A DNA stretch of 11,620 nt from an uncultured bacterium (GCA_963977445.1 CAXBPH010000221.1:1-11620); one strand, 5' to 3'; numbered from the stretch's first letter, positions 3,897-7,025 are shown. The notes: a model not told the origin generated them from the sequence alone. Translations and numbers: made by a program.

Positions 3897-4685
3897 TTAC
3901 CCCTGCACGGCCTTGGCCCGGGCCTCTCGGGCCGTCTGCTGAATTTCCAGCCAGGGGAAGCGACGCTCACCTGCAAAAGGTTGGGGCGGCGTACCAAACA
4001 TCATGATGTAGGCGCGACGGGGCTGGTCCGTGTGATTGGCACCGGCATAGTGCAGAGTGCGGGCCAGGTGGAAGGTCGCTCCCCCTGCAGGCAACGGACA
4101 GGCCACCGCCGCCGCATCGTCGACCGGCGTATCCACTTCAAGGCCATGGACCCGTGGGTCGTGATTTATAGGATGATGGGCCTGCACCTCGCCCCGATGA
4201 CTTCCCGGAATAAAATGCATGCACCCGTTCTCCAGGGTTGCTTCCTGGAGAGGAATCCACAAACTGAGGGCATTGTATGCCAGGTCCGGGCTCCAGTAGG
4301 CCTCATCCTGATGCCAGGGCGTTGCCACGCCCTTGCCCGCCGGTTTGAGAATCGCGTGATCGCCCTGGGCCTCCGTGCCCTCTCCCAAAAGTTGGCGGGC
4401 CAGTGCCAAGGCGGTCTGCCCGCATTGAAGGGCGGCAAAGGCAGGCTCGTAGCGGGATGGATTGAGCATCTGTTGCAGCTTGGCAGGTGCGCCCGCCTCA
4501 TCATCACCGGCCAAGTCAAAGTGGTCGCCCGCCTCCCGGCCCGTCTGGTTTGCGAAAAGCCTGTCGTAAAGACCACGCATTTTTTCTACCTCGTCGGGAG
4601 ACACCAGCGCATCCACGGCAAGATAACCCGACTCATGGAATGATGCAATTTGCTCGGCGGATAACACAGATATCGTGGCTGACAT
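3897..4685 (-). CDS. Phytanoyl-CoA dioxygenase (PhyH) family Fe(II)/2-oxoglutarate dioxygenase
   Basis: LSAEQIASFHESGYL, TPWHQDEAYW (HxD), WIPLQEATLENGCMHFIPGSH, TLHYAGAN.TDQPRRA (distal His and Arg). Start at ATG 4685 with GGAG upstream. Confidence 0.92.
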   Translation of the reverse strand: MSATISVLSAEQIASFHESGYLAVDALVSPDEVEKMRGLYDRLFANQTGREAGDHFDLAGDDEAGAPAKLQQMLNPSRYEPAFAALQCGQTALALARQLLGEGTEAQGDHAILKPAGKGVATPWHQDEAYWSPDLAYNALSLWIPLQEATLENGCMHFIPGSHRGEVQAHHPINHDPRVHGLEVDTPVDDAAAVACPLPAGGATFHLARTLHYAGANHTDQPRRAYIMMFGTPPQPFAGERRFPWLEIQQTAREARAKAVQG

Positions 4686-4725
4686 AGGGGCAGGGCTCCG
4701 GGTAGGTATTTCCGCTGTTGGACCT

Positions 4726-4755
4726 ATCCTACGAGAGCCCGTCAACACACTGCAA
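4726..4755 (-). promoter_or_regulatory. Putative sigma70-type promoter for the PhyH-family gene
   Basis: On the minus strand: TTGCAG, 18-nt spacer, TAGGAT, about 40 nt upstream of ATG 4685. Confidence 0.3.
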
Positions 4756-4919
4756 CCGAAACAAACCTTCCAGAGCACAGGAAAATTAAACGGTTCATGG
4801 GCAACTAGTGGCGATTATTTATTTGAAACTTCAAGTGCCGGAGGTAAAAGGTGACTCGATGGAATCTTGCGAATCATGTCGCCACGCATCATTCTTCAGA
4901 TAAAGCTACAAACCATGGA

Positions 4920-5110
4920 CGTGCCGCGCGATCTGGTACTCCAGTTCGTGCGAAGGGGCTGTGGGACGTCATTGGGGTCTATGTAGTTGTGATATGTCTT
5001 CACGAGGCCATTGGGGACAAAACATTGTGCTTGGTCGTGGCCTTGATGTAGAGACGCAGTCGTATCGCCCATTCCGCGCACGAACCGGGAATACCGGATC
5101 GCGCGGCACG
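4920..5110. repeat. Imperfect 33/34-bp inverted repeat pair enclosing about 124 nt
   Basis: 4920-4952 CGTGCCGCGCGATCTGGTACTCC-AGTTCGTGCG versus reverse complement of 5077-5110 CGTGCCGCGCGATCCGGTATTCCCGGTTCGTGCG: 30 of 34 identical (3 transitions, 1 indel). Confidence 0.93.
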
Positions 5111-5314
5111 ATTGATGGGTGTAGTTTGTTTTTGGCGGAGTGAGTTTTTGTTGGCACCCACCTGCGGCGCACCGTTGGCCTTCAAACGGAGGCGAGACGT
5201 ACGCCTGTGGCGGAAGCAACGCGGGGGAGCTGCGAGGGCAATCGCATTAAAACCGACGCGCGCAAAATATAAGTTTGGTGGGCTCCTGAATCAACAAAGC
5301 GAACGCGATAGTGC

Positions 5315-5367
5315 CACCCGATCACGCTCTTCGTACGGCGTAGTCGTACCAAGAGCGGGTTCGGGTG
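5315..5367. repeat. 53-nt symmetric palindrome (25-nt arms, 3-nt loop)
   Basis: CACCCGA/TCGGGTG, CGCTCTT/AAGAGCG and GTACGGC/GTCGTAC all pair in one register: 21 Watson-Crick pairs, 1 G-U, 3 mismatches. Confidence 0.9.
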
Positions 5368-5829
5368 CCTTGACCCGCGCCTTTGTCCGATTAATGTGGA
5401 TGCCACCGTAGCACGGTTCACCGAAATGCCTGCAATGAAACAAGGCCACCGCCAAGTCGTCCACCAACCCGGCCAGTAGCGCAAGAGATGAATGTCCTAC
5501 CCGTATTACGTCGGACCAGCGCTCCCAATTGTCAAAGACTGCTTTAAGCGAAGTAGCCAAGCCGACGGCTGGTTGTCTTCTTGTAGACGCGCGCGTACGC
5601 TGCCGAAGCAAACGAGCAAAATCAGATCGAGGTCTCCCTTCGCTTATTTCGTTCACAACTGCGTCCCCCTTCAAAAATTGGGTATCCCTCCTCCCCACTC
5701 ACGGTGAGGCGTGAGCCACATCAGGCGGACCCGGCATAAAATTGGGGCCACCAGCTTTGCACGATACGTCGTGCACAGGTGTCACGCTCATGCTTCCCCA
5801 TACCCGCCACCTTCAACGTCCACGAGGAT

Positions 5830-6174
5830 CTACCGAAAGACGAACGTCCAGTCATAAGGCACAAAGCCGGCACAGTCCCGACGATGGAGAAAGCGAGTGG
5901 GTTGCCCCGGTGCGCCGACGGCCACCGTGTCGCCGGAGAGCACAATATAGCAGTAGATGCTTTTTTGAACCGTTGCACGATAAAGCTGAACACTGAGAAA
6001 CAACATCGCGACCAGCGAGGCCCCAATCACCCCCCAGGCAATCCATCCGAGACCATCTCCCGGACCATCAATGAGAACGACGATGGCAATGGCCGCGAGA
6101 AGGTGGACCAGGCCAAAAACGCGAATGGCGTAGTAGCTCTGCGCTTGTGCCTTCGTCCGCTTGTAGGTTGTCAT
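5830..6174 (-). CDS. Hypothetical small membrane protein with two predicted TM helices; possibly a frameshifted or truncated gene
   Basis: GGAGG about 9 nt before ATG 6174; hydrophobic stretches VFGLVHLLAAIAIVVLI and LGWIAWGVIGASLVAMLFLSV. No family recognised. Confidence 0.6.
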   Translation of the reverse strand: MTTYKRTKAQAQSYYAIRVFGLVHLLAAIAIVVLIDGPGDGLGWIAWGVIGASLVAMLFLSVQLYRATVQKSIYCYIVLSGDTVAVGAPGQPTRFLHRRDCAGFVPYDWTFVFR

Positions 6175-6359
6175 CGTGAATTGCCTCCAGAAATTGCCGC
6201 GCCCCAGACTAATAAGTAAAGAATATCATCTTCCGCTGATGGCCGTCGATTATTTTTTCTCGGGCCTGATATCGCCCTCCCCACGCCCAATTCATTGGAT
6301 TGGCTCCTTCCCATGGGGTAGGATATTCTTTCTATTAAACCTATTTCTGGAGAGTTGCT

Positions 6360-7025
6360 ATGAATTCCCTGCGCTGGCTTCTATGTTTCAGTTGGAGCGC
6401 CCTCTTAATCCTCCCCCAGGCCGTCGCTGACGAAACACAAGAAGCCCTCGAATTTGAATTGCCGAAGGCGTATTACGGAGGTACCGTCGCCTCCTACTGG
6501 AGCCCCCATCTGGACACCCGGATCTACGTGGATCGCAAACCCCTGCTGGCCCCGAAAGGGACCGCTGTTGTCTCGCTGAATAAGCCGGTCACCTCCAGTG
6601 GTCAACCCCTTCACGGTGAACTCAGCTGGCTCAATGACGGCAACAAGGAATTCGGCAAAAGCACCCTGCTGGAACTGCCCGAAGGCAAACAGTGGGTACA
6701 GATTGACCTGGAAAACACCTACGCCATCTATGCGGTCCTCCTCTGGCATTTCCACGAAGGAGGCCGGGTCTATTTTGACGTGATCGGGCAAATTTCCGAC
6801 GACCCCGAATTCAAAACCGGGGTAACAACGATTTACAACAACGACTACGACGATTCTCTCGGACTCGGCAAAGGCACGGACAAAGAGTACATCGAAAACA
6901 GCGATGGACGGCTTTTTATCCCGGAGGATGTATCCGGCCGATACGTGCGCTTTTACAGTCGGGGCAACACGGATCACGACTTCAACAACTACGTGGAGCT
7001 CGAGGTCTGGGGCAAGAAGAAATAA
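6360..7025 (+). CDS. Secreted discoidin / F5-8 type C-like (galactose-binding fold) protein
   Basis: GGAGAG RBS; signal peptide ending AVA; SLNKPVTSS, LNDG, QWVQIDLE, GRYVRFYS and ELEVWG are hallmarks of the fold. Confidence 0.8.
   Translation: MNSLRWLLCFSWSALLILPQAVADETQEALEFELPKAYYGGTVASYWSPHLDTRIYVDRKPLLAPKGTAVVSLNKPVTSSGQPLHGELSWLNDGNKEFGKSTLLELPEGKQWVQIDLENTYAIYAVLLWHFHEGGRVYFDVIGQISDDPEFKTGVTTIYNNDYDDSLGLGKGTDKEYIENSDGRLFIPEDVSGRYVRFYSRGNTDHDFNNYVELEVWGKKK

Follow-up and report, generated by a model that had tools for sequence, protein, structure and literature searches.

The window analysed here is an 11,620-nt stretch of DNA from an uncultured bacterium (GCA_963977445.1, CAXBPH010000221.1:1-11620). 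It belongs to a Hydrogenedentota assembly (G000) of 7.1 Mb in 464 contigs that is 94% complete; to our knowledge, this phylum is known only from metagenomes. Two minus-strand genes frame the region of interest, a PhyH-family dioxygenase gene (3897-4688; PF05721, E = 1.5e-36), which served as synteny anchor, and an open reading frame (ORF) of 114 aa (5830-6174). Between them lies a segment of about 0.9 kb, 4793-5721, which a first-pass annotation had described as poor in ORFs and tiled by helices, and had put forward as a candidate large structured non-coding RNA (ncRNA). The segment is indeed ORF-poor: its two longest frames, both on the minus strand, encode 135 aa (5291-5698) and 107 aa (4896-5219), and neither has a Pfam match. 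The helices had also been placed accurately. All eight pairs checked against the sequence were exact, including 4793-4800/4913-4920, 4808-4815/4878-4885, 5116-5121/5155-5160 and 5396-5402/5458-5464, as well as two rods at 4920-5110 (rod 1) and 5289-5392 (rod 2). Beyond the 114-aa ORF, positions 6439-7020 of an F5/8-type-C-like gene (ORF 6360-7025) match tandem paralogous copies in sister genomes (e.g. G008:C1:2687081-2691017 and G001:C333:143258-148351).

The neighbouring membrane-protein gene is truncated

The PhyH gene of the sister genome G007 (C277, ~71% nucleotide identity to that of the window) is followed by 80 nt and then by an intact gene for a 398-aa membrane protein (P0001), and homologous open frames of 403-435 aa occur in five other genomes of the genus. 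By tblastn, the 114-aa ORF of the window aligns to P0001 residues 1-114 (40% identity, E = 1e-25) and is the N-terminal remnant of such a ~400-aa gene. Residues 121-151 align out of frame to 5724-5816 on the minus strand (35% identity over 31 aa, a match reported jointly with the N-terminal one), and beyond residue 151 P0001 has no match in the window or elsewhere in G000. Since the gene is intact in G007 and present here as remnants, the repeat mosaic described below stands, by synteny, in the position of its 3′ two-thirds, where the ~250 final codons and a short spacer to PhyH would be expected.

The whole segment could itself be the decayed C-terminal part of this gene. The gene is truly truncated, 5724-5816 still aligns out of frame, and the distance between the PhyH start and the last codon with homology, ~1035 nt, is near the ~824 nt expected from G007. 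However, a tblastn search with residues 152-398 against 4793-5721 (word size 2, E ≤ 10) gave no credible match, the best being 15 aa at E = 0.46, and 743 of the 860 nt of 4792-5651 belong to three multi-copy repeat families, A, B and C. Gene decay is therefore seen at 5724-5816, just outside the segment, and not in 4793-5721, and we consider it very improbable as an account of the whole.

The segment is a mosaic of three truncated repeats

We searched G000 with window positions 4700-5830, which gave 46 matches, and ran a local BLAST of 4600-5900, which gave 172 high-scoring pairs (HSPs). BLAST depth was ~40-67 over 4792-5160, 10-20 over 5235-5470 and 24-30 over 5514-5650, and fell to 1 (self only) in both flanks. 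None of the 172 HSPs joined two families except the self-match, no other G000 locus combining any two of A, B and C, and five sister genomes gave only single-family or flanking-gene matches. As no HSP joins two blocks, the three families are independent repeats. They are separated by low-copy filler, 5161-5234 between A and B (matching itself, two places on C4 and 24 nt on C179) and 5471-5513 between B and C (a single other match, on C180), and are followed by unique sequence at 5652-5723. Thus 4792-5651 is, with a probability of about 0.85, an accumulation of three non-autonomous mobile repeats that are unrelated to one another, lie side by side and are all truncated.

Family A (122 HSPs in G000, 17 spanning the query) is a miniature element of the terminal inverted repeat (TIR) type. 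Full copies measure 388-409 bp, and both ends are inverted repeats beginning GGTTCATGGGCAA. TIR pairs in G000 lie 381-390 bp apart, and where both ends are present, in 13 copies, they have the terminal 16-20 bp in common. The window copy (4792-5160, plus strand) has its left TIR (GGTTCATGGGCAA...) at 4792-4811 and diverges from the 24 other aligned copies after 5160; the ~18-20 bp that should follow, among them the right TIR, are therefore missing. An A/T run almost always lies just outside the ends. In 14 copies that keep both ends, the left and right flanks matched at a mean of 5.0 of 8 positions, against 2.99 for mismatched pairs, a value reached in 0 of 5000 permutations (1 of 5000 for k = 7). 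Such an excess over the permutations speaks for an old duplication of the target, about 8 bp long; the repeated flanks are degenerate and rich in A/T, and A/T-rich targets hamper their reading copy by copy. Because of its TIRs and target duplication, family A would be moved by a DDE transposase. We found no pair of family A TIRs more than 409 bp apart that forms one element in G000, and no autonomous partner by TIR pairs in G003, G004, G007 or G008, fragmented assemblies in which one may lie hidden.

The family is narrowly distributed. Full-length copies occur in two sister species only (72-74% identity), and matches of any kind in 6 of 41 genomes and 1 of 25 genera, with none found in the 24 other genera of the order. 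In an alignment of 25 copies from three species, the TIRs and the two hairpins of rod 1 (the V1 motifs described below) are nearly invariant, and the remainder is ~70% identical between species, which makes the V1 doublet the most conserved part of the element.

Four short family A copies of ~206 bp in G000 (C31:30326-30531, C90:3938-4143, C433:2305-2510 and C106:11394-11600) lack the whole V1 doublet and share one junction, which keeps the first 8-12 nt of the left hairpin and has its endpoints within the 4-nt direct repeat CGAT. They represent either an amplified excision footprint or an ancestral element that predates insertion of the doublet. Other copies, on C68, C159, C35 and C55, directly follow a G+C-rich hairpin and T run, which suggests insertion into the tails of intrinsic terminator-like structures.

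With 24 HSPs, of which 6 span the query, family B (5235-5470, plus strand) is represented here by the left part of a longer element, other copies extending further to the right. Full copies on C1, C35, C56, C79, C119 and C320 carry a second hairpin motif of the same V2 class on the opposite strand, 123-126 nt downstream. The window copy is without this right inverted hairpin, and rod 2 is a single long-loop V2 motif, with its core at 5311-5367 on the plus strand.

Family C (5514-5651, plus strand; 34 HSPs, 22 spanning the query) is the right half of a second TIR element. Its right TIR (...CTTCGCTTATTT) closes the window copy and its left half is missing; other copies extend leftward by another ~170 nt, as far as the inverted TIR CTAAATAAGCGAAG, so that in full the element comprises ~300 bp between inverted CTAAATAAGCGAAG ends. 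A TIR-pair search of G000, a fragmented assembly that may hide one, found no autonomous family C element. One pair enclosing 1552 bp was considered as a candidate and rejected, as what it encloses is an ordinary host gene. A 14-mer of family C with two mismatches was unspecific (99 hits against 47 in the control). The TIR pairs fall into two size classes, of about 155-190 bp and 262-307 bp, and an internal palindrome of the family contains an optional 22-nt module in 7 of 19 aligned copies.

Folding energy is concentrated in two palindromes

Folded as a whole, the 929-nt segment had z-scores of −5.2 (plus strand) and −6.2 (minus strand) against dinucleotide shuffles, 20 for each strand. These values, the absence of a protein-like ORF and the G·U-compatible positions in the hairpin stems are what would be expected if 4793-5721 encoded one structured ncRNA of ~0.9 kb in the size class of GOLLD, ROOL, OLE and HEARO. 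The segment was then considered in five pieces, with 100 shuffles each. Both rods scored strongly (−6.5/−7.5 for rod 1 and −5.0/−5.6 for rod 2), and the three remaining sub-segments were near zero (−1.2/−1.1 for 4793-4919, +0.8/−1.1 for 5111-5288 and +0.3/+0.3 for 5393-5721), similar to three coding controls of 329 nt (+0.35 to −2.3). The whole-segment signal thus arises from the two rods only, an outcome that the first-pass annotation had itself named as speaking against its large-RNA proposal, and similar values on the two strands are expected of DNA palindromes. A repeat search placed the arms of rod 1 at 4920-4942/5088-5110 (outer, 23 nt, 91% complementary) and 4941-4952/5077-5088 (inner, 12 nt, 92%), and those of rod 2 at 5315-5337/5345-5367 (23 nt, 87%). 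The series of helices said to follow one another almost without gaps is therefore present as placed, but outside the two rods amounts to no more than chance.

Conservation also argues against a single RNA. The three long-range helices of the first-pass annotation that fall in family A were not kept across the 25 aligned copies: unpaired cells numbered 21, 52 and 37, double changes were almost absent, and the pair 4812/4881 formed in only 2 of the 25. A search of the whole window against Rfam, covering both strands, returned nothing at E ≤ 1. The three families, all truncated here, occur separately elsewhere in tens of copies with other neighbours, and the sister species has an intact protein gene at the same position. 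Like GOLLD, ROOL, OLE and HEARO, the segment is of that size, has no ORF and has a strong overall folding energy; unlike them, it has no Rfam counterpart, is not conserved as a whole unit, and is a composite of repeats with its structure confined to two palindromes. We regard one large RNA gene as extremely improbable, and a pile-up of three broken small mobile DNA repeats as very probably the correct description. The first-pass annotation had named a nest of palindromic mobile elements as its alternative, and this matches what we observed, namely three truncated repeat families and REP-type hairpins.

The rods are built from REP-like hairpins

A single motif recurs, in different versions, in both arms of rod 1 and in the core of rod 2; it runs from a GTGC tail through one strand of a closing helix and a variable inner hairpin to the other closing strand. 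With up to one mismatch, its 13-nt core occurs 181 times in G000, against 8 times in a reversed control. A regular expression that left two stem positions free on each side gave 189 hits against 8 in a reversed/complemented control. The free stem positions co-vary, and three classes account for 172 of the 189 hits: V1 (G,G/T,C; 97 in G000), V2 (A,C/G,T; 40) and V3 (A,G/T,T; 35). The 30 distinct short forms are 32-33 nt long with a stem of 12-13 bp, an invariant T·T mismatch and one position that is either G·T or C-G. Seven closing pairs are formed in all 30, either six Watson-Crick pairs and one G·T or seven Watson-Crick pairs, and compensatory changes occur at further inner-stem positions.

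As DNA, the motif is predicted to fold into a hairpin with an unpaired tail. The left hairpin of rod 1 (V1) has a 12-bp stem with one G·T and one T·T and a 4-nt loop, with a predicted energy of −10.7 kcal/mol (z = −3.1); the V2 hairpin of rod 2 has a predicted −20.4 kcal/mol (z = −5.8). Outside open frames of at least 150 codons lay 120 of the 172 classified motifs, compared with 147 of 2000 random 40-mers; the other 52 lay inside such long frames, which may or may not be genes.

The motifs occur in G000 as 97 singlets and as doublets. Neighbouring pairs were in +/− orientation with tails outward in 32 of 39 cases, and never −/+ within one variant. A spacer of 122-126 nt separates most V1 and V2 pairs, including 15 of the 20 V1 +/− pairs. 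Rod 1 is a V1 doublet of this kind, with the left hairpin at 4921-4952 on the plus strand, a 124-nt spacer (4953-5076) that forms the interior of the rod, and an inverted short-form hairpin at 5077-5109 on the minus strand. This right arm is without the 22-nt module that most family A copies carry there. We considered the module, in either arm of rod 1, as a tiny mobile insert and rejected this in favour of heterodimers of long-loop and short-loop REPs; such heterodimers are described for other REP families (PMC3733652). V1 hairpins also occur with their flanks as same-strand tandem arrays, at C96:12782-13151, C385:41-308 and C346:24-269 of G000, with periods of 169, 107 and 214 nt, respectively.

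The rods might be REP-type by origin and now act as RNA elements, either as a 3′-end stabiliser or terminator of the minus-strand transcript from upstream or as part of the PhyH leader. The G·T pairs and the invariant T·T give a strand-specific hairpin, the segment lies between two minus-strand genes, and PMC3733652 reports REPs downstream of genes as active at the RNA level. On the other hand, the gene upstream is a truncated remnant, and a consensus scan of 4600-6300 found terminator- and promoter-like sites no more often than in shuffles (3 against 1.9 for terminator-like and 1 against 1.3 for promoter-like sites). Such a role is very unlikely in our judgement. Among public sequencing runs, four of DNA or unknown type held at most 0.09 of the sampled words, and no RNA runs were listed.

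Hairpin variants are associated with RAYT transposase clades

Pfam Y1_Tnp had 16 matches in G000. Of these genes, only that on C9 adjoins a strict motif within 500 nt, and one on C157 has a motif at 974 nt. The C9 protein is a RAYT of 195 aa, and V2 motifs lie 155 nt before its gene and 192 and 363 nt after it. By protein search, each of the other 8 genomes of the genus yielded homologues, and G000 itself a further two, on C171 and C11. With a cut-off of 80 bits for NCBIfam NF047646 ('REP-associated tyrosine transposase'), the C171 protein reaches 87.5 and the C9 protein 85.9. The sole PDB match is E. coli TnpA-REP (4ER8, E = 0.001), and HUH-like H-V/I-H and YIHNNP stretches are visible in the RAYT proteins. 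Apart from the three RAYTs, the Y1/HUH genes of G000 include three of the IS200 type (150-164 aa) and about eight of 200-250 aa, which have VMPNHVH and Y-I-x-x-NP motifs and are of a different group from the RAYTs.

Across the genus, 23 RAYT loci were defined as tblastn matches at E ≤ 1e-20. A motif was found within 450 nt at 12 of them and on both sides at 7, compared with a genome-wide frequency of about one per 37 kb. The other 11 have no motif matching the regular expression, and one or more of them, including C11, are flanked by a hairpin of another class. The 14-mers that flank the G000 RAYTs on both sides are highly repeated, 96 times for C171 (V1), 40-42 times for C9 (V2) and 43 times for C11 (another class). 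In a tree of 21 proteins, which left out G003:C7 (internal stop; flanks V1) and G007:C255 (<150 residues), the V1-flanked proteins formed one clade (support 99/97) and two V3-flanked proteins another (100/99). A ten-member clade, to which the C11 protein belongs, was without the regular-expression motif, bar one locus with V3 motifs 267-441 nt away. A genomic association between RAYT genes and hairpin variants is thus evident at the level of sequence.

The fourth hairpin class lies at C11:31572-31608, 31789-31828, 32480-32516 and 32683-32724 in G000 (14-mers up to 43 times), flanking the third RAYT paralogue (31787-32437) on both sides. Its stem is unrelated to those of V1-V3, and it has the end GTGCCACCC. 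Further stem variants, with A,A/T,T and A,A/A,T at the free positions, flank RAYT homologues at G006:C209 and G002:C219.

The doublets could be something other than RAYT substrates, such as the TIRs of small DDE-type elements or palindromes kept for another reason, with their nearness to RAYT genes being secondary. Their conserved ends point outward as those of TIRs do, V3 doublets have near-identical 33-nt ends and poorly related interiors, the spacers are long, and the 94%-complete G000 assembly contains no V3-flanked RAYT. Against this stand the excess of motifs near RAYT genes over their genome-wide frequency, the way in which variant and RAYT clade go together, and the REP-like form of the ends, every one of which folds as a hairpin with its tail unpaired. 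We hold this alternative to be quite improbable and favour the reading of the doublets as RAYT-related. The flanks of the V1 RAYT gene on C171 are homologous to the interior of family A (81-93% identity); therefore, the doublet and its surroundings within family A derive from the V1 REP population.

Discussion

We interpret the segment as the remains of REP/REPIN-RAYT elements and of miniature inverted-repeat elements (MITEs), two of the three repeats carrying REP-type hairpins, and we are highly confident in this. Family A is a TIR element that makes ~8-bp target duplications in A/T-rich DNA, and the REPIN-like doublet inside it is rod 1. Family B is the left part of a sister doublet with another stem variant, its long hairpin being seen as rod 2, and in family C one half remains of another TIR element. 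For RAYT (HUH/Y1) transposases, whose genes lie elsewhere in the genome, the REP-type hairpins would be the cognate sites in single-stranded DNA; by analogy with known REP-RAYT systems these enzymes may bind, cleave and mobilise them. The strong folding signal is then a by-product of DNA palindromes and not the mark of one RNA gene.

Established examples of REP/REPIN-RAYT systems are the GTAG-tagged REP super-family and REPtrons, the REPINs of P. fluorescens and the REP/BIME elements of E. coli. Our comparison draws on Di Nocera et al. 2013 (PMC3733652), Bertels and Rainey 2011 (PMC3116915) and Bertels et al. 2017 (PMC5581495). Described REPs have an unpaired GTAG tag, with GYAG, GTRG and GTGG allowed as variants, and doublets with a usual spacer of 20-100 bp (PMC3733652). 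They have G·T pairs and sub-families with complementary stem changes, and form HH dimers with outward tags, heterodimers with unequal loops and tandem clusters; RAYT genes are flanked by their own repeats, with a high frequency of oligomers in the flanks (PMC3733652, PMC3116915).

The Hydrogenedentota hairpins resemble these systems in their form, a short palindrome that is imperfect, contains G·T pairs and has an unpaired tag at its end, in having sub-families with complementary stem changes, and in their ~170 copies mostly outside long open frames. They also share inverted HH doublets with outward tags, heterodimers with unequal loops, tandem clusters, and RAYT genes that are flanked by their own repeat class and encode proteins above the NCBIfam cut-off. 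Unlike described REPs, they have the tag GTGC instead of GTAG/GTRG (the unpaired 5′ tail agrees with GTRG at three of four positions, the fourth base being C), an invariant T·T mismatch in the stem and a spacer of ~124 nt, and one doublet class lies inside a TIR element with target duplications. The host also differs, being a member of an uncultured phylum. Among the papers listed by a limited search of the REP, RAYT, REPIN and MITE literature, none mentions Hydrogenedentota, which does not prove absence from print.

Bacterial MITEs are non-autonomous TIR elements, for example Correia/NEMIS. Families A and C resemble them in their length (300-400 bp), lack of an ORF, TIRs of 14-20 bp and tens of copies, and family A in its ~8-bp duplications at A/T-rich targets. 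They differ in that the assemblies searched yielded no parent insertion sequence with the same ends for A or C, and in that family A carries a REPIN-like doublet.

These results remove a false candidate for a large RNA, and indicate that nested palindromic repeats can mimic such an RNA in a folding scan. They document REP/REPIN-RAYT systems and MITEs in the Hydrogenedentota, and the locus offers a tangible example of a truncated gene in association with repeats of this kind. Several hairpin variants exist side by side, differ by compensatory stem changes and correspond to distinct transposase clades; they offer ready pairs of enzyme and hairpin for tests of specificity. More tentatively, family A may be a two-layer parasite, in which a RAYT-dependent REPIN sits inside a TIR element and is spread by it, in a genus with at least four REP classes; we lean slightly against this extended reading. 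If it is true, the compensatory stem changes that track RAYT clades would naturally reveal how HUH transposases discriminate between hairpins.
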